From contig CBFGTS010000015.1 of assembly GCA_965652295.1 (NCBI GenBank), forward strand, positions 41,086 through 105,085: a stretch of 64,000 nucleotides of DNA, read 5' to 3'. Below are positions 29,356-42,021 of the stretch, piece by piece; positions within the stretch are counted from its first letter, which is position 1, and the number at the start of each line of letters is the position of its first letter. The translations under genes were made by a program, and so were the position numbers. Under the pieces are notes generated by a model, which saw only the letters and a program-made list of their open reading frames with translations, searched no databases and was not told where the DNA came from. This stretch comes from an uncultured Haloferula sp. Its GTDB lineage: Bacteria > Verrucomicrobiota > Verrucomicrobiia > Verrucomicrobiales > Akkermansiaceae.

Positions 29356-30417
29356 ATGAAGTTTCTGGCGACTCTCCTTCTGGTCTCACCCCTTCATGCC
29401 GATTGGTTCTATCACCGGGTCCTTCCCTCCAACTCCAGCTCGAATTGGTCCCGGCTGACCCGCCATCTGACCGAAGAACCGGCTCAACGTGTTTTCATCC
29501 ACCCGCGGACCCTACCAGGCGGTCCGGACCACCCCGACCGCAACCTCGGCGTGTTCTTCACTTCCGGATCGTGGGCCGTTTTCTACGAAAACCAGGCATC
29601 GGCTCCCCCCAGTCCGCTTGAATTCTCGGTTTTCACGCCAGCTGCCGGGGACACGATGTTCCTCCACACCCATCACTCGGGAGCCCAGCCCACTTTCAAA
29701 CGCTCCTACATCGATCATCCGTCTCTCAATGGCAGTCCCGACGTGTTGTTGTTCCTTACTCACAACTGGACGGCCGGTGGCGGCACCTACAACAACCAAT
29801 TCTCACCCGTCACCTACGACCCTTCGTCGTCGAAGTGGTTCATCCACGGATATATCCCGAGCGACGAGTTCACCGACGTGCCCGACGGAGCCACATGGAA
29901 TGTGCTCGTAGTGCCGGCGGTCGATGAGACCACCTTCCGCCACACCGCAACGACCGGCAACACTACCGGCCCATCGACCACCCTCGACCATCCACATCTG
30001 AATGGAAATCCATCGGCACTGGTTCTGGTCACCAACCAATGGCCAACCGACTTCGTCGGTGCGACCTTCAGCATGATGCAGCCGACCTACGATGACTCCC
30101 TCGGCCGGTGGAAGCTGACGACGACGAGAAATGTCAGCATCCAGACCGGGTCGGTCTTTCACATTAAAGTCAGCCCGGCACCCGTGACGCCGGAGCCGAC
30201 AATCTCAATTTCCTACTCCAGCCCCACGGCCACCTTGAAGTTGCCCACCGAGTTTGGATACACCTATCAACTGAAAACCTCCCCCGACCTCGGGACCTTC
30301 AACCCCGAAGGGCTTCCATTCAACGGCAACGGGACCATCCGGTCCTACCCGACGTCCGTGGTTCTACCGGAGAATTTCTATCAGCTCCACCGCACGCTCG
30401 GCGAAGTCCAGCCCTGA
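29356..30417 (+). CDS. secreted protein with tandem (I/L)DHPxLNGxP repeats and a verrucomicrobial-type C-terminal module
   Basis: Signal peptide MKFLATLLLVSPLHA; YIDHPSLNGSPDVLLFLTHNW / TLDHPHLNGNPSALVLVTNQW; C-term YTYQLKTSPDL...NFYQL. Confidence 0.75.
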   Translation: MKFLATLLLVSPLHADWFYHRVLPSNSSSNWSRLTRHLTEEPAQRVFIHPRTLPGGPDHPDRNLGVFFTSGSWAVFYENQASAPPSPLEFSVFTPAAGDTMFLHTHHSGAQPTFKRSYIDHPSLNGSPDVLLFLTHNWTAGGGTYNNQFSPVTYDPSSSKWFIHGYIPSDEFTDVPDGATWNVLVVPAVDETTFRHTATTGNTTGPSTTLDHPHLNGNPSALVLVTNQWPTDFVGATFSMMQPTYDDSLGRWKLTTTRNVSIQTGSVFHIKVSPAPVTPEPTISISYSSPTATLKLPTEFGYTYQLKTSPDLGTFNPEGLPFNGNGTIRSYPTSVVLPENFYQLHRTLGEVQP

Positions 30418-34014: not shown

Positions 34015-34569
34015 TCAGTCCCGTTTCCCGAGAACATCCAACGCCGCGGAGCGGGCTTCTTCCATGAGGTCGAGCGTTTCGTGAAGGCCACACCACTGCC
34101 GGATGTAATCCCAGTCGAGCCCTTCCGGCCCCAAGGTCGCCATGACCGCCACCACGTCATCGAAGTCCTTCCCGCGTTTGGCGGTCTTGTTCCAGCGGAG
34201 TTTCTGCACGATGACATCCTCCGGCGTCGGCAGAAAAACGAAAGAGCCTGGAAAAATTTCCAGCCGCTTCCTGCGTTCGAACCTCATGCGATCATGCGGG
34301 TCGTCGCTCAGGCGGAAGAGTTCGATCGTAAACCGGGTTCCCTCCACTTGCAGGATTTCCCGCCGTGTCGCGGTGATGGCAATCCCCGCCGGCAGGACTG
34401 TCGGGATTTTCGACCACTCGGAGGACGGGAGGTGAACCACCACATCCGCGTCTTTCGTCATCCGCGGCATGCCGTAGAAGTTCGACGAATACGACCCCAC
34501 CACCATGTAGGGCACCCCGTGTTCGTCGAAAGCGCGGAGCAGCTCAAGCAACGAATCGGTGCCGGTCAT
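34015..34569 (-). CDS. DNA pol beta-superfamily nucleotidyltransferase (DUF6036/AbiEii-like), putative toxin
   Basis: YMVVGSYSSNFYGMPRMTKDADVVV (GS...DxD), PEDVIVQKLRW, KDFDDV, LDWDYI. Confidence 0.8.
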   Translation of the reverse strand: MTGTDSLLELLRAFDEHGVPYMVVGSYSSNFYGMPRMTKDADVVVHLPSSEWSKIPTVLPAGIAITATRREILQVEGTRFTIELFRLSDDPHDRMRFERRKRLEIFPGSFVFLPTPEDVIVQKLRWNKTAKRGKDFDDVVAVMATLGPEGLDWDYIRQWCGLHETLDLMEEARSAALDVLGKRD

Positions 34570-34793
34570 CGTCCGAGTTTCTCAGCCAAGGCCAGTTGAT
34601 CTTTCAGCCTTCTTTCCCGCTCCTCGGGGCCGGCATCGGGAAAACGGGCGGCAATCCCGGCCTCAACCCATCGGCATGATTCTTCGAAAAGCTCGGCACC
34701 CGCGCGAAATTTCTCCTCCGGCGTCATCGCACGCGCCTGCTTCACCTTCGCCCGGAGGGCGAAGAGGGCGTCATCGGCGATGCGGTCTTCCAT
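34566..34793 (-). CDS. small helical protein, putative antitoxin partner
   Basis: 75 aa, RAMTPEEKF...GIAARFPDA; ATGA overlap with the nucleotidyltransferase. Confidence 0.7.
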   Translation of the reverse strand: MEDRIADDALFALRAKVKQARAMTPEEKFRAGAELFEESCRWVEAGIAARFPDAGPEERERRLKDQLALAEKLGR

Positions 34794-34889
34794 GAAGGGA
34801 GACTAGCGGGCAGGCAGGGCCTAAGCAAGCAAGCCGGAGCCGAAACCTGGAGCATTGCCGACGGCTTCCGGACAAGGCAGGCTGTCTGA

Positions 34890-36253
34890 ATGCGCCATTT
34901 TCTCCTGCTGCTGCTCCTCCTCGTCCGCGTTCATGCCGTCGATCCGCTGCCCACGGATCAAGTCCTGCTCATCGGCCGCTTCGCGAATGGGCCGGTCGAG
35001 CAACCGGTGACGGTCGATGCGACCGCCTTTGATCTTTGGTTCGCTTCCCCCGATCCCGCCGCGTGGCCGGCGGAAATCCAGGCCCGTCAGTTTTTCCGCA
35101 ACGGCGGCACCCAGCTCGAAGTCGTGCGGATCGACCCCTCACTGCCGCTCACCGATGCCCTGACCGGCCGCTTCGATCCACCCGCCCTGCGCGGCTGCGG
35201 CTGGGCGCTTCTCTTTTCCGATCTCGGTATCCTGCTGGTGCCCGAACTCGCCGACCTCCCCGCGACGCCGCGCAACGACCTCCTCACCCATCTCCGCGAA
35301 CTCGCCGACGGCCGCCATTTCATCCTCCTCCTCGACCCACCGGCCGAGGTGGACACCGCCGCCGAGGCCACGACCTGGGCCGCCGGGCTGCCGCAGGACC
35401 TCGATTTCGTCGGCGCGTTGTATCCGCACGTCCTCGTCGATCCCGGCAATGGCAATCCGATCGCGACCGGAGCCAGCGGTTCGGTCGCGCCGGTGGTTTT
35501 GCGAAAGGACGCTTCCGCCGGTGTGTGGAACGCCGCTGCCGGGACCGATGCCGCGATTCTCGTCGAAGGCTTGTCGCCCGAGCTTTCCCCAACGATGCCA
35601 GCACGCTCAACGCCGCAAACCTGTGCATCATCCGGCACTTCACCGGCTACGGCACCGTGCTCTGGGGCTGGCGCTCGCGCGACACCCTCCACTCCGACAA
35701 CCTCTATTTCTCCGTCGCCCGGCTGCGGCGCTGGCTCACTCACTCGCTGCGCCGCCGCCTCGCCGGACCCGCCGCCCTCCAGCCCGGCGACGGCACGCTG
35801 TGGACGAGTTTGCAAAGCCAGTGCGCCAGCTTCCTCGACGACCACTTCCGTGACGGCGCGTTCGCCGGCATGGCGTCCGACGACGCCTACTTCGCGCGCT
35901 GCGATGCGACCACGACCACTGACGAGGACGTCGCCCAGCACCGCGCCAACCTGCTCTTCGGCATCGCCCCCGTCCGGCCTTCCGAGTTCCAGTTCGTCAC
36001 CATCCCCTTCGATACCCTCGATCCATCCCGCCCCACGCCTGCCGGCAGCCTGATCCTGACCCTTCCCCCGAACGGCGGCTGGCGTGTCTTCCACTCCACC
36101 GCCCCCGGCTTCACCCACCGCGTCCAGACCAGCGCCACCCTCGCCCCCCTCGACTGGATCACCCGCACCAACGCCCTCGGCGACGGCGGCTGGCGCGCGC
36201 CCTCCGGCCCCGCCCTGCCGGCACCCCACTTCTTCCGCCTGGCGACCGATTGA
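34890..36253 (+). pseudogene. contractile tail-sheath homolog with signal peptide and C-terminal export-type module; split by a -1 frameshift near 35585-35591
   Basis: Frame 1: IGRFANGPVEQPV, RQFFRNGG..LEVVRI, LLDPP, ALYPHV, GVWNAAAG. Frame -1: LNAANLCIIRHFTGYGTVLWGWRS, YFSVARL, GAFAG..DDAYFARCDATTTT, GIAPVRPSEF. All are sheath motifs. Confidence 0.85.
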
Positions 36254-36351
36254 CTGCTGATCAAGGGGCCCCGGAGGAACGGGAAAAACCGGGGCAGCAC
36301 GGAACCGCTGCCTTTCGGGATCAACCCGAGACTCCAACAACCTGCCTCTTT

Positions 36352-36819
36352 TCAATCCTCGACGACCTCGACGTCGATCACCTGGCCTTTCGAATCGAAG
36401 CGGCGCGTTGGTCCACCACCGGCAGGCGGAGCGCTGGACGCCCCCGGGACCACCAGATGGATGCGGTTCTTCAGCGAATCCTTGAGCCGCCGGACGACGA
36501 CGGCGCGCACCGGCGGCGTGAGGAGCAGGAAGCCGATGGCATCGGTGAGAAAGCCGGGCGTCAGCAGCACCGCCCCGGCGATCAGGATCAAGAGCCCCTC
36601 GATGACCTCCTGATGCGGCAAGCGCCCCTCCGACAGGGATTGGCGGTAGCCTTGAAGCACCTTCAGCCCCTGCTTCTTGGTCAGCCACGCGCCCAGGAAC
36701 CCGGTGAGGACGATGATTGCCAGCGTCGCCGGCAGGCCGATCCATTCCCCCACGGTGAGAAACAGAGCCAGCTCGATCACCGGGATGGTGATGAAGAGAA
36801 TAAGAAGACGGCCGAACAT
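36352..36819 (-). CDS. fxsA: FxsA family membrane protein
   Basis: LFITIPVIELALF..VGEWIG..TLAIIVLTGFLG...QGL, GAVLLTPGFLTDAIG, VIDVE tail. Confidence 0.92.
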   Translation of the reverse strand: MFGRLLILFITIPVIELALFLTVGEWIGLPATLAIIVLTGFLGAWLTKKQGLKVLQGYRQSLSEGRLPHQEVIEGLLILIAGAVLLTPGFLTDAIGFLLLTPPVRAVVVRRLKDSLKNRIHLVVPGASSAPPAGGGPTRRFDSKGQVIDVEVVED

Positions 36820-36867
36820 CGCGCCGGGACCCTAGCACCCCTGGCGATCCGATCCAGAGCAGCCTCG
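36576..36867. repeat. ~290-bp direct repeat, copy 1 (fxsA 5' half plus upstream region)
   Basis: Colinear with 38197-38488 at offset 1621, mostly synonymous differences. Confidence 0.9.
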
Positions 36868-36920
36868 TCGCACGCTCAAGGCCACGAAACGCTGGGCCGA
36901 TGATCCCGTGGACTACCCCC

Positions 36921-36993
36921 TGAGCCGATTTCATCCGCTTTTCGGCTCATAAAAACCTCGTATGTGAGCCGAATAGCCCCCATATTCGGCTCA
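36921..36993. promoter_or_regulatory. two TGAGCCGA-N12/13-TCGGCTCA palindromes, putative Fic autoregulatory operators
   Basis: 36921-36949 and 36966-36993, the second overlapping the Fic ATG; third copy at 38531-38559. Confidence 0.65.
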
Positions 36994-38099
36994 TGCTCTT
37001 CAACTGGCAGCAGGACGATTGGCCGGATTTCCGCTACCGGACCGGAGATCTGACGGATCTACTGCTCGCGTTCGCGGACCATGCCGGTCGCGTGGGTGGC
37101 TTCCTCGAAGCCCTGCCGGAGGATCTCGGCACCGAAGCCGTCCTCGACCTCATGATCGCCGAAGCGATCCGCACTTCGGCGATCGAGGGCGAAACCCTGC
37201 AACGGGCCGCCGTGATGTCCTCGATCCGCAATCACCTCGGCCTCAATCCTGTCCCCGAACCGGTAGCGGACCCTCTGGCCGATGGAGCCAGCGAACTCAT
37301 GGTCGCCGTCCGCAACGACTTCCGGGAGCCCCTTTCCGAGAAAACCCTCTTCGCCTGGCACCGCATGCTTCTCGGCGGCTCGTCCGAGCTCCGGGTCGGC
37401 GGCTGGCGCGAAGGCGGCGATCCGATGCAAGTGGTCTCGGGCCGCATCGACGAGCCCACCGTCCACTTCGAAGCTCCCCCTGCCGCTCAGGTCCCGGCGG
37501 AAATGGAGCGCTTCATCGCGTGGTTCAATGCCACCGCCCCCGGCGGTTCGGACTCCATCCCGCACGCCCCCGTTCGCTCGGCCATCACCCACCTTTATTT
37601 CGAGAGCATCCACCCTTTCGAGGATGGCAACGGCCGCATCGGCCGCGCGCTGTCGGAGAAGGCCCTTTCCCAAGGCCTTGGCCGGCCCGTCGTCATGAGC
37701 CTGTCGCGCACCATCGACTCACGCAGGAACGACTACTACGCTGCCCTGAAGTTCGCCCAACGGACCAACGAAGCGACTGCCTGGGTCCGTTGGTTCGTCG
37801 GCGTCGTGGTCGAGGCCCAGCGCGACGCCGAATCGCGGGTCCGCTTCGTCCTGCAGAAATCGAAGTTCTTCCAGCGTTTCGACGCCGTCCTGAACGAACG
37901 TCAGCGAAAGGTCATCCGCCGCATGTTCGACGCCGGGCCGGACGGCTTCACCGGCGGCATGAACGCCCGCAAATACGTCGCCCTCACCGGAGCTTCCAAA
38001 GCCACCGCCACCCGCGACCTCCAGCTCCTCGTTGAGCTTGGTGCCCTGTTCCCCCTCGGCGGCGGCCGCAGCACCCGCTACGAGCTGGTGCTCGACTGA
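36993..38099 (+). CDS. Fic family protein (DUF4172 N-terminus, Fic domain, C-terminal wHTH)
   Basis: WQQDDWPDFRY, TSAIEGE inhibitory motif, HPFEDGNGRIGR, SKATATRDL...GGGRSTRY. Confidence 0.95.
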   Translation: MLFNWQQDDWPDFRYRTGDLTDLLLAFADHAGRVGGFLEALPEDLGTEAVLDLMIAEAIRTSAIEGETLQRAAVMSSIRNHLGLNPVPEPVADPLADGASELMVAVRNDFREPLSEKTLFAWHRMLLGGSSELRVGGWREGGDPMQVVSGRIDEPTVHFEAPPAAQVPAEMERFIAWFNATAPGGSDSIPHAPVRSAITHLYFESIHPFEDGNGRIGRALSEKALSQGLGRPVVMSLSRTIDSRRNDYYAALKFAQRTNEATAWVRWFVGVVVEAQRDAESRVRFVLQKSKFFQRFDAVLNERQRKVIRRMFDAGPDGFTGGMNARKYVALTGASKATATRDLQLLVELGALFPLGGGRSTRYELVLD

Positions 38100-38440
38100 T
38101 TCCGCCTGATCCGGCGCGGACCGGGCCTCACGTAAAACGTTAAGATTAAGTGAACTCTGAGTCCTATAGAACGACAGAACGCCAGGCATCTTTTTTCGGC
38201 GACCAGAACCAAGAGCCCCTTGATGACCTCCTGATGCGGCAATCGCCCCTCCGACAGGGATTGGCGGTAGCCTTGAAGTACCTTCAGCCCCTGCTTCTTG
38301 GTCAGCCACGCGCCCAGAAACCCGGTGAGAACGATGATCGCCAGCGTCGCCGGCAGGCCGATCCATTCTCCGACAGTCAGAAACAGAGCCAGCTCGATCA
38401 CCGGGACGGTGATGAAGAGAAGAAGAAGACGGCCGAACAT
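38078..38440 (-). pseudogene. fxsA: 3'-truncated duplicate of fxsA
   Basis: First ~80 codons nearly identical in protein to 36352-36819; homology ends near 38197, then unrelated sequence. Confidence 0.85.
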
Positions 38441-38796: not shown

Positions 38797-41700
38797 ATGC
38801 TCTCCCGCTCTGCAAGCCCCGCATGGAAAAGCACCTGGCTCTGGAAGACCCTTGCCAAGCGCTCCAAGAACAAGGGAAACGCCCACGCGTCGGAGTTTCT
38901 CCCCACCCTGGAACTCTGGATGCGCCTCCTCGACACTGTACTTGCTAAAGGCGGCACCTCGCCCAGCGACTTCACTCTGCACGATGCCGACCACGCCCTC
39001 CGTGTGGCGGACCGCATAGAGCAGCTTCTCACAGACTCTATTCGGCAGAACCTCTCCGATTACGAACTCGCCCTGCTCCTGCTGGCAGCCTACAGCCACG
39101 ACATCGGCATGACCCCAGAGCGCGGAAAGGTCACCGCCCATCACCGCCATCTCTTTGATCCCGACGGGAGCGCACTCACCGAGAAGGAGAAGGCCAGCTT
39201 CCAGAGTTATCTCGACGAGCATGACGGCCACGCTATCTCACTTCCACTGACCGCGCCCATCGATCTTAATCTCGCCGACGAACTGGTCGCCTTCTACGTC
39301 CGCGAGCGGCACAACGACTGGAGCGCCGAATGGATCCGTGAAAATCTTATTGCTGCCAGTTTCGCGTTCCTACCGGACGTGGTCGAAATCCTTGTTCGTC
39401 TCTGCACCAGCCATCACCTAGACGTCCTCCGGCTCGATGCCTCCGACTTCGATCCCCTCCTCAGCAACGGCCCCGTACCCCAGCTAATCCACCTCCGCTA
39501 CCTCGCCTGCCTCCTGCGCCTCGCGGACATCTTGGAAAACGACCCCGAGCGCACCCCCGCCGTGCTCCTTCGCCACCGTGCCCTTGAGGATCGTCCGCGT
39601 AGCCTCGTCCATTGGCAGAAGGACCACGCTCTCACCATTGACATTCGCGGCGACAACCTCCACTTCCAAGCTCGTCCTCGTACCGCGGTGGCCCACCGCG
39701 CCCTGATCGATCTCAAGGATTGGATCGACCACGAACTCCATGGCATTGTCTCCTTCGGCGAGCGTCTCCCCGCGGAAAAGACCGTCGGCAAGCAAATCAT
39801 CCGCCGCGATTGGCATCTCGCCCCCGCCGTCACCCACGACATCCGACCCTTCAATGAGGCCTACGAGTACATTGATGGCGCCTTCCGTCCCAACACCGCG
39901 CGCCTGCTCCAGCTCCTCTCCGGCGAGCAACTCTATGGCAATCCTCTCCATGCCGTCCGCGAGCTGCTCCAAAATGCCTTCGATGCTGTCCGCGAAAAGA
40001 TCGCCCGCAAGCGGCTGACTCTACCGAACCCCGCCAACCGCAGGTGGGAAGAAGAACTCGGCAATCAGGAGCATGTTATCCTCACCTTGCGTCCCGGCCC
40101 CGCTGGTGGCTGGGAGCTTGTCTGCGAGGACAGCGGCGTCGGCCTCACTCGGGACATCATCAACCGCCACGTGCTGGTTAGCGGCACCGGTCGCCGCCAC
40201 GCCATTCGCCAGCTTGAGCGCGATTGCCAAGATGCCGGATTCCACCCCGGTCTCACCGGCCAATTCGGCATCGGCGTCCTCAGCTACTTCATGCTCGCTG
40301 AAGCTGTCACCCTTGAGACCACCCGTTACCAAGGCTGCAACGACGGAACCGAAAGCTGGCGCTTCACCACTCGCGGCGTGGGCAGCTTCGGTGAACTGAA
40401 GAAGCTCCCCACATCTTTTCTCCACGGCGGCTCCCGGGTGACGTGGGAGTTGAAGAGGCAATGGGTGACCGACAGTTCGGCATTCGCTCAGAAGCTGCTG
40501 GCCTACTTAGTGGATACACTTGTTCGGCTACCATGTCGCTTCGAGTATCGCATCGAAGGTGTTCCGAAGGGCAACCACATCTGGAAGCGCGATTTCGGCT
40601 GGGTAACCACCGAGGAGGACTGGATAGGCCTCGCGCAGAGCAAATGGAAAAGCGCCGATGAGATCTATGGAAGTGAACGTACATTTATCAGCGAAGCGGA
40701 GCGACGTCTGATCGAAGAACTCAAAGCACAACACCCGACATTTGAAGCGGATGCCCAAGACCGACTCCGGTGCGAGTTTCTTGAAGTGCCACTTCCCGAT
40801 AATGCCGGAATCGCCCGGGTGGTGGTAACTTACTTCGAACTCAAGGACGGAAGGTCGCTCATGCATAATCCCACGTATCCCGGTCACGAGCCATTCAGAT
40901 TGGAGAGTCACTCGTTCGGCGCATGGCGAGGGATGGGCTGTGCGATTCGAGCACGAAACGCTCATAAGAAAGGGGAGATTTTCACGACGCCGTTGGCCAT
41001 GGCCCAGCAGGGCATTTCTGTGGAGGTCGATCTACTTGGCGAGATCGATTCTGCCCTTGGCGTCGATCGCGAAGGGGTAATCATTTCATCGCACAGCACC
41101 GATTCTTGGAGAAATGCCATCTTGACCGCCGCCACTGCACTCCTGGAACGAACACTGGCCACAGGAAGCGGCAACCTGTTCCACGAGATCAATCAAGCAA
41201 CGCGGAACTTGCCCTTGACGCTCGCTAAAGGGGTAGGATGGTTCCACATTGCAGAGGAACCCCGATTTCGACCGCTCCAGTTCCCCGCTGCGATTTCGTT
41301 TGCGCAAAAAGCCATCGCCCCAAACCTACAAACCTCTGAGGGCGAACCGGTAACGCTTCTAGGCTGTGATGAAAAGCAGCTTCGCCTCCTTCCGCGCACC
41401 TTTGAGCTAAAGTTCATCCAATCAAAGAGGAAATCTCGCCGCGGCTATCCCTCCCCATTAATCTTCTGGAAGCAACCATCGGCGACCCCACGCAAAGCGA
41501 TATTCCCAAAGGAGTGGGAGCGTGTCGCCATCTTCGTTTTGGCATACAACACTTTCTCTAATTGGCAGTTGAAGATCCTTAATGAGCAACATCCTCTGCT
41601 CTCCCTTCTTTCGAAAGAGCAGCGTGAAACAGTGCTGCTTCCAAATACCCATGGGCACCGCTTTTGGGAGGAGCTCGCCTCAGTGGAAAGCCCCGGAAAT

Positions 41701-42021
41701 TCTGCATGGGCGTTGTTGAGAGCGGCCCTTTCACTCTCAACATCATTCTACAGCAAAGGTCCGTCTTCGTGGAACAAGTTCGTGAACGATAACGAAGTCC
41801 TGATGGAATCTCATTGGAATCTGATAAGCCAAGATTTGGGAAGAGAAACAAGCGATCTGGAATTTCAAATCTGCACGCAGTCAAGAACGCTGACGATCTC
41901 CCCCAGGAAATCAGCAATCGGAACGACAAATGGCGAAGCTGCGAACATTTCGTCCTTTTTGCCCGCCATAAACGATCCGAGCTTTCTCCTCTACGAAACT
42001 GATACTCTAGGGCGCGAGTGA
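38797..42021 (+). CDS. HD-domain (HD-CE-like) plus HSP90-like GHKL ATPase protein with unrecognised C-terminal region
   Basis: FTLHDADHALRV, AAYSHDIGM, LLRLADILE; QLYGNPLHAVRELLQNAFDA, EDSGVGL, GQFGIGVLSYFM. Confidence 0.88.
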   Translation: MLSRSASPAWKSTWLWKTLAKRSKNKGNAHASEFLPTLELWMRLLDTVLAKGGTSPSDFTLHDADHALRVADRIEQLLTDSIRQNLSDYELALLLLAAYSHDIGMTPERGKVTAHHRHLFDPDGSALTEKEKASFQSYLDEHDGHAISLPLTAPIDLNLADELVAFYVRERHNDWSAEWIRENLIAASFAFLPDVVEILVRLCTSHHLDVLRLDASDFDPLLSNGPVPQLIHLRYLACLLRLADILENDPERTPAVLLRHRALEDRPRSLVHWQKDHALTIDIRGDNLHFQARPRTAVAHRALIDLKDWIDHELHGIVSFGERLPAEKTVGKQIIRRDWHLAPAVTHDIRPFNEAYEYIDGAFRPNTARLLQLLSGEQLYGNPLHAVRELLQNAFDAVREKIARKRLTLPNPANRRWEEELGNQEHVILTLRPGPAGGWELVCEDSGVGLTRDIINRHVLVSGTGRRHAIRQLERDCQDAGFHPGLTGQFGIGVLSYFMLAEAVTLETTRYQGCNDGTESWRFTTRGVGSFGELKKLPTSFLHGGSRVTWELKRQWVTDSSAFAQKLLAYLVDTLVRLPCRFEYRIEGVPKGNHIWKRDFGWVTTEEDWIGLAQSKWKSADEIYGSERTFISEAERRLIEELKAQHPTFEADAQDRLRCEFLEVPLPDNAGIARVVVTYFELKDGRSLMHNPTYPGHEPFRLESHSFGAWRGMGCAIRARNAHKKGEIFTTPLAMAQQGISVEVDLLGEIDSALGVDREGVIISSHSTDSWRNAILTAATALLERTLATGSGNLFHEINQATRNLPLTLAKGVGWFHIAEEPRFRPLQFPAAISFAQKAIAPNLQTSEGEPVTLLGCDEKQLRLLPRTFELKFIQSKRKSRRGYPSPLIFWKQPSATPRKAIFPKEWERVAIFVLAYNTFSNWQLKILNEQHPLLSLLSKEQRETVLLPNTHGHRFWEELASVESPGNSAWALLRAALSLSTSFYSKGPSSWNKFVNDNEVLMESHWNLISQDLGRETSDLEFQICTQSRTLTISPRKSAIGTTNGEAANISSFLPAINDPSFLLYETDTLGRE

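Follow-up and report, generated by a model that had tools for sequence, protein, structure and literature searches.

A contractile-sheath fold with a Sec-type leader and a secreted-protein tail in a machine-less gene family of Verrucomicrobiota

A gene joining a Sec-type signal peptide, a contractile-sheath fold and a C-terminal tail common to many secreted proteins was found at positions 34890-36253 (+) of the window, by which we mean the whole stretch of 64,000 nt analysed here (contig C15 of genome G000, which is 4.37 Mb in size and 98% complete). Intact genes with the same leader-sheath-tail architecture are present in genomes G005, G012, G026, G288 and G598. The family forms a single clade, sits in an orphan context, is under purifying selection and has lost motifs of ordinary sheaths, and the window copy is broken by a frameshift. 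Ordinary contractile sheaths are made in the cytoplasm without a signal peptide, and to our knowledge all characterised sheaths act as the cytoplasmic motor of an injection machine. Judging from its leader, the family protein is very probably exported; its surface location, assembly state and role are what we infer from the features described below.

In the window gene, the ATG at 34890 comes right after an in-frame TGA, so there is no upstream start able to strip the leader MRHFLLLLLLLVRVHA; such a start, a possibility raised in the earlier note, was looked for and is ruled out. The leader (34890-34937, +) consists of 16 aa with a basic start, a Leu run and a V-H-A cleavage motif, reaches a hydrophobic 9-mer score of 3.73 under the hydrophobicity rule used here for leader calls in place of SignalP, and occupies the position of the N-terminal handshake arm of ordinary sheaths. 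The N-terminal two thirds of the sheath follow in the first frame (34938-35588, +), carrying the motifs GRF.NGP, WPAE.Q.RQFF.NGG, DPP, LYP and GVW.A.AG. This half matches PHROG 23 (E 1.8e-7) and, more weakly, 9qgl and Pvc4 (E 0.0014 and 0.041), and is 49% identical to the intact homolog P0032. After the frameshift (35577-35605, +), where the window is one base short of intact homologs (29 nt versus 30 in P0032), the C-terminal sheath domain continues in the second frame (35591-36010, +), with matches to the Streptomyces coelicolor CIS sheath 8bky (E 1.2e-15), PHROG 17610 (E 2.2e-11) and PHROG 23 (E 1.9e-8), in agreement with the earlier reading of the two joined frames as a contractile sheath. 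Neither half scores against Pfam or NCBIfam. By column comparison, the C-terminal arm GIAPVRPSEF is kept at 35960-35989, LQPG stands where FEPN would be in the C-terminal domain, and the PGVY arm is absent. The gene ends with a beta-sandwich tail of about 80 aa (36011-36253, +) that matches the tail profile and terminates in FFRL, with the stop codon at 36251-36253. No sigma-70-type promoter pattern was matched in 34500-37100 of the window.

The frameshift appears genuine in this strain. Contigs from four of 19 listed runs were compared with the window. Those of X1 and X2, both from one study that is the probable source of the window, align to it gap-free across the break; an assembly error is thus unlikely, bearing in mind that both contigs may be the window's own source and that the check was made on assembled contigs rather than reads. 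In the X6 contigs, the break site lies outside coverage. A contig of X3, from a separate study, spans 34700-36024 with 31 substitutions (97.7% identity) and has one additional base behind 35588 that keeps the frame open there. The 30 coding substitutions between X3 and the window comprise 16 synonymous and 14 non-synonymous changes (pN/pS 0.31, binomial p 0.001). Because so close a strain is open at this site, the break is recent, and the substitution pattern indicates that the gene was under selection until recently, so that the window copy is probably a young pseudogene.

The model of the intact member P0003 (pLDDT 90.7) is a minimal sheath without outer domains that best matches eCIS sheaths (Foldseek E 1.8e-22); superposed on 9gts, its VIA Z is 35.3, with an rmsd of 2.1 A over 326 residues at 26% identity. 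One of the 38 members of the family has a PGVY-type N-terminal arm and 3 have FE.N, compared with 82 and 105, respectively, of the 132 other sheaths; the lost stretch around FE.N is W..FEPN.E. Among 34 family members, 54 of the 100 columns that 78 ordinary sheaths conserve are retained and the other 46 are not, and sixteen positions absent from ordinary sheaths, such as R34, W63, E66, Q68, E121, R277 and W287, are newly conserved in the family. The P.EF strand of the C-terminal arm is retained (P369, E371 and F372 in 94-97% of 34 members), as are C342, T347 and D352, in all members, within a short helix at 342-358, the putative tube-attachment helix. Of nine intact members compared with the Pfam gathering scores, none reaches that of PF04984 and one, the G598 protein, exceeds that of PF17482 (31.3 against 26.9). 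In assembled sheaths (PMC6088184, PMC8894135 and PMC12546770), each subunit contributes its N-terminus as an extra strand to the next ring, and this sheet is prolonged by the C-terminus of a neighbouring subunit. The missing N-terminal arm therefore counts, as an inference, against a normal contractile mesh, while polymers are still possible, since FV3 gp053 lacking 25 N-terminal residues still makes polysheath and lacking 29 makes ribbons (PMC6357053).

About 30 near-full-length relatives were recovered at 90% clustering from a scored set of 8000 candidates; clustering at 50% added another ten. The family is sparse at the genome level, with 4 of 35 genomes in the genus, G000 included, and 4 of 401 sampled genomes in the class, the latter spread over three families. 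A hydrophobic stretch precedes the sheath core in 36 of the 37 scorable sequences among the 38 members, compared with 6 of the 78 scorable among 132 other sheaths, which upholds the earlier identification of a Sec-type leader; the search for intact homologs with a leader, proposed at the same time, yielded the five genomic copies named above. Export as a Tat substrate or lipoprotein was also considered and set aside, as no Tat motif or lipobox occurs in the 38 members, the window gene included. A quick tree was built from 90 rows, namely 30 family members, 7 leader-only sheaths and 53 others, with one third of the ordinary matches kept; in it, all 30 family rows fall on one side of a branch with an SH-aLRT of 96. 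The three intact genes of G005, G012 and G026 have dN/dS values of 0.24-0.31, and leader and tail are retained across members down to 31-38% identity.

Broken or deleted copies are those of G000, G021, P0021 and P0022. The last two have clean gaps of about 170 and 65 internal residues, which are either decay or assembly artefacts. In G021 (L016:8150-8437, -), the site that corresponds to that of the window gene, upstream of dnaE, holds a leader-like piece fused to the tail, and the sheath body is gone; this remnant shows 81% DNA identity over 157 nt. Tail-less sheaths that have a signal-like leader (P0064, from an Armatimonadota genome, P0077, P0082, P0102, P0117 and P0135) are scattered in the tree, and their occurrence at several positions means that recruitment may have happened more than once. 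G518 has a short, leaderless orphan sheath with PGVY retained (L179:8645-9754), immediately upstream of the gene for a large secreted tail protein; an orphan gp19-type tube (L183:1495-1971) and a leader-Hcp pair lie on two further contigs, one on each. This orphan sheath possibly resembles a precursor state. A phage-borne origin for the family was examined and rejected: eight phage records match, none over more than 46% of the query, and the tail occurs in none of 19 viral loci. Pattern scans of genome and metagenome contigs, which demand exact short words and say little about family range, returned 4 and at least 80 loci, respectively, all ordinary sheaths, with no tail among the matches listed.

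The injection machine was sought in whole genomes. No gp19 tube, baseplate J, GPD, gp25 or spike gene was detected in genome searches of G000, G005 and G012, and no gp19 match in G598. A 31-sequence tube profile that matched four control loci found nothing in G000. The absence of eCIS tube, baseplate and spike genes claimed for the window thus extends to its whole genome, but two tube-fold Hcp genes with leaders are present on another contig. Hidden eCIS partners were also looked for in G000 with eleven proteins of the G001 eCIS operon and the G518 tube, and these matched only general AAA ATPases and the sheath itself. None of six family loci has eCIS-type neighbours, and no homolog lies in a normal eCIS operon at the loci examined, an arrangement that the earlier note had named as evidence against its reading. 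The five intact genomic copies adjoin housekeeping genes or genes of other secreted proteins; in G005, G012 and G026 these are thrB/purE/purK-like, as named by reading the sequences, and no neighbour is shared between this group and G000, G288 or G598. Elsewhere in their genomes, G288 has eCIS or phage genes and G026 has a T6SS.

Around the window gene, a small gene pair (34015-34793, -) is divergent from the sheath gene, one of its members being weakly AbiEii-like (E 0.0013, under the cut-off), and a similar pair is present at the G021 site. The first ~80 codons of fxsA occur twice (36352-36819, -, and 38078-38440, -), on either side of a Fic/DUF4172 gene (36993-38099), which looks as if it entered with a partial fxsA duplication. 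A 1074-aa protein (38797-42021, +) combines an HD-CE domain with an HSP90-like ATPase region, an architecture of conflict-system type.

The C-terminal tail is widespread in this genome. A profile grown from family tails and this genome's own tails has 59 matches in G000, 49 of them within 10 aa of the stop codon and 42 in proteins with a leader-like start. The tail is modelled as a small beta-sandwich (pLDDT 92) that is FN3-like in structure comparison, with middling Z values of up to 7.0, and no Pfam or NCBIfam family is common to 28 tails. One bearer is an unrelated DUF7452 secreted protein at 29356-30417 (+), used for comparison and not as a partner, with the same kind of tail at 30175-30414. 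Its tail had been likened to that of the sheath gene in the earlier note; the direct pairwise match is weak (E 0.083), and the likeness emerges through P0029, whose tail matches 30235-30396 at E 8e-7. Both tails also score on one profile, a result that is partly circular because the profile was built on this genome's tails. Similar tails end cellulase, haloperoxidase, lectin and YHYH proteins of Verrucomicrobiota in ESM Atlas matches, all below 0.9 and treated as leads. From its position, the tail is a putative sorting or anchoring tag. In this respect, the family resembles T9SS cargo of Bacteroidota, which likewise combines a Sec leader with a small C-terminal beta-sandwich common to dozens of unrelated proteins. 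Unlike that cargo, the tail is FN3-like and matches no Pfam or NCBIfam model, including Por_Secre_tail-type models among the 28 tails, and PorV was found in none of five carriers in a search where the control responded; SprA_N was likewise found in none of the five, in a search where no control responded.

Compared with the short eCIS sheaths (S. coelicolor CIS 9gts, 8bky and 8bl4; Afp2/Afp4 6rao; Pvc2/Pvc4 6j0b and 6j0n), the family has the same two-domain fold, core residues and C-terminal P.EF arm. It differs from them in having a signal peptide in place of the PGVY arm, in the loss of FEPN and in the added FN3-like tail; moreover, the window gene has no operon, and G000 has no gp19 tube, baseplate or spike. 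The family works like none of the systems compared here: it has a sheath fold but lacks the features that define an eCIS sheath, namely arm, motif, operon and, going by the leader, cytoplasmic location. The gain of a leader and shared tail together with the loss of the machine seems to point to a new job outside the cell.

The reading that we favour, tentatively and at somewhat short of even confidence, is that the exported sheath has a stand-alone structural or binding role as a non-contractile protein at the surface, "structural or binding" being what remains once injection is excluded. A short eCIS-type sheath gene would have entered Verrucomicrobiota in a single capture; a Sec signal peptide would have taken the place of its N-terminal arm, and the tail that is common among secreted proteins of the phylum would have been appended. 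The protein would be exported unfolded and would fold outside the cytoplasm into the complete sheath subunit that the model predicts, and the tail may sort it or hold it at the surface. Injection would be impossible because the ring-to-ring arm, FEPN loop, gp19 tube, baseplate and spike are all lacking. The product would most likely be a non-contractile surface protein, either a monomer or rings or ribbons joined via the retained C-terminal arm. The gene looks accessory: intact copies show purifying selection, losses are frequent, and the frameshift of this strain is recent. Several points count against the stand-alone role: P0059 keeps a PGVY arm behind its leader, G288 has its eCIS or phage genes and G026 its T6SS, and some copies are broken. 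Furthermore, a purely stand-alone role leaves unexplained the exported Hcp of all six full-length carriers.

The Hcp genes of G000 (G000:C3:19010-20399, or L047:3011-4400; Pfam E 6e-29 and 5e-12) form a tandem pair in which both members have leaders and the second continues, after its leader and Hcp domain, into a TSP3-like repeat and the same tail as the sheath. Such pairs are present in 12 other genomes examined, and G000 itself has no T6SS. Across 18 Hcp loci, 13 are tandem pairs, and 26 of the 31 Hcp frames qualify as leader-bearing under the hydrophobicity rule; four short ones clearly fail it, one of them inside the T6SS of G026. A possible but rather unlikely alternative is that the exported sheath would optionally coat or tether exported Hcp rings or tubes, giving a tube-and-sheath assembly that is reconstituted outside the cytoplasm, draws on scattered genes and has no baseplate or spike. 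All six full-length sheath carriers encode leader-bearing Hcp (G000, G005, G012, G026 and G288 as a pair, G598 singly), against a background of any Hcp in 49 of 401 genomes of the class and 20 of 35 of the genus, with leader-bearing pairs in 12 of those 35; G021, where the sheath body is deleted, has no Hcp match. The second Hcp bears the sheath-type tail in 12 of the 13 pairs, and the conserved residues of helix 342-358 would also fit tube attachment. With kin treated as independent and genome size uncontrolled, the naive co-occurrence odds come to 0.009-0.09 for the genus and 0.002 for the class; counting G005, G012 and G026 once for their common insertion site leaves about four independent cases. 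Against an Hcp-bound layer, the sheath and Hcp genes are never adjacent, most Hcp carriers have no sheath (4 of 20 in the genus do), all cases are in large genomes rich in tail proteins, and eCIS sheaths pair with gp19-type tubes, not Hcp. The co-occurrence may reflect a partner or a shared lifestyle and is treated as a lead. A bolder version, which we hold to be unlikely, is that Verrucomicrobia send the two halves of a contractile tail (Hcp tube subunits and the sheath) through Sec under a shared surface tag and build from them, outside the cytoplasm, a surface structure of tube and sheath; this would be a phage-tail-derived envelope appendage with dispersed genes and neither baseplate nor spike.

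Reuse of the sheath fold for ligand binding or catalysis by a monomeric domain, at a new site and unrelated to tubular structures, is distinctly less probable. The sixteen family-specific positions and the 46 lost columns would suit it, as would the C-terminal arm of the model, which aligns with the monomeric crystal forms 6gkw, 3lml and 3hxl to residues 379-381, whereas alignments to most assembled sheaths end at 368; however, no catalytic set was recognised, and single-chain sheath models may take the monomer form regardless. It is quite improbable that the protein exchanges strands with the sheaths of incoming myophage tails, tailocins or eCIS particles and so acts as their decoy or antagonist. 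The window neighbours are of conflict type (the AbiEii-like nucleotidyltransferase pair, the Fic protein and the HD-CE ATPase), and the gene is patchy in its presence and often lost (4 of the 35 genus genomes carry it), but the housekeeping or secreted-protein neighbours of the five intact copies argue against a decoy, and receptor binding is the job of fibres rather than the sheath. Moreover, free sheath ends to attack are not obvious, because cap and baseplate handshakes close assembled sheaths (PMC8894135 and PMC12546770). An eCIS remnant in decay whose hydrophobic start arose by chance, neither exported nor functional, would accord with the frameshifted window copy and the deletions in G021, P0021 and P0022; retention of leader and tail down to 31-38% identity, purifying selection and occurrence in three families of the class make this very unlikely.

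Two further systems invite comparison with the family protein. Polysheaths of FV3 gp053 and T4 gp18 self-assemble without tube or baseplate, in the former even minus 25 N-terminal residues (PMC6357053). In contrast to the family protein, which is natural, export-tagged, under selection and known here from sequence, polysheaths are laboratory or aberrant cytoplasmic products. The T6SS sheath TssBC and its Hcp tube have a related fold (9n4v, Z 21), and carriers have Hcp-fold genes; unlike in a T6SS, the sheath is a single chain of eCIS type, no VipB was found in G000, G005, G012 or G288 (with the control responding for G000), and the Hcp proteins have leaders. Of the earlier note's proposal, the domesticated orphan sheath with a leader and a shared tail stands, whereas a normal contractile lattice is argued against by the loss of arm and FEPN. 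Its statement that no such architecture had been described is matched by a search of largely open-access literature that found none; the accessible parts of PMC3482391 and PMC9230969 make no mention of a secreted sheath.

In summary, this conserved, export-tagged and machine-less clade appears to show the sheath fold reused for something else outside the cell. The family provides a directly testable protein in genomes of cultured genera, including the closed genome G026, and a natural test of which handshake arm sheath assembly needs. Its sheath is also a well-defined cargo for asking what the unnamed C-terminal tail of Verrucomicrobiota does, and co-assembly of the sheath with the exported Hcp pair, if true, would be a new class of envelope structure.
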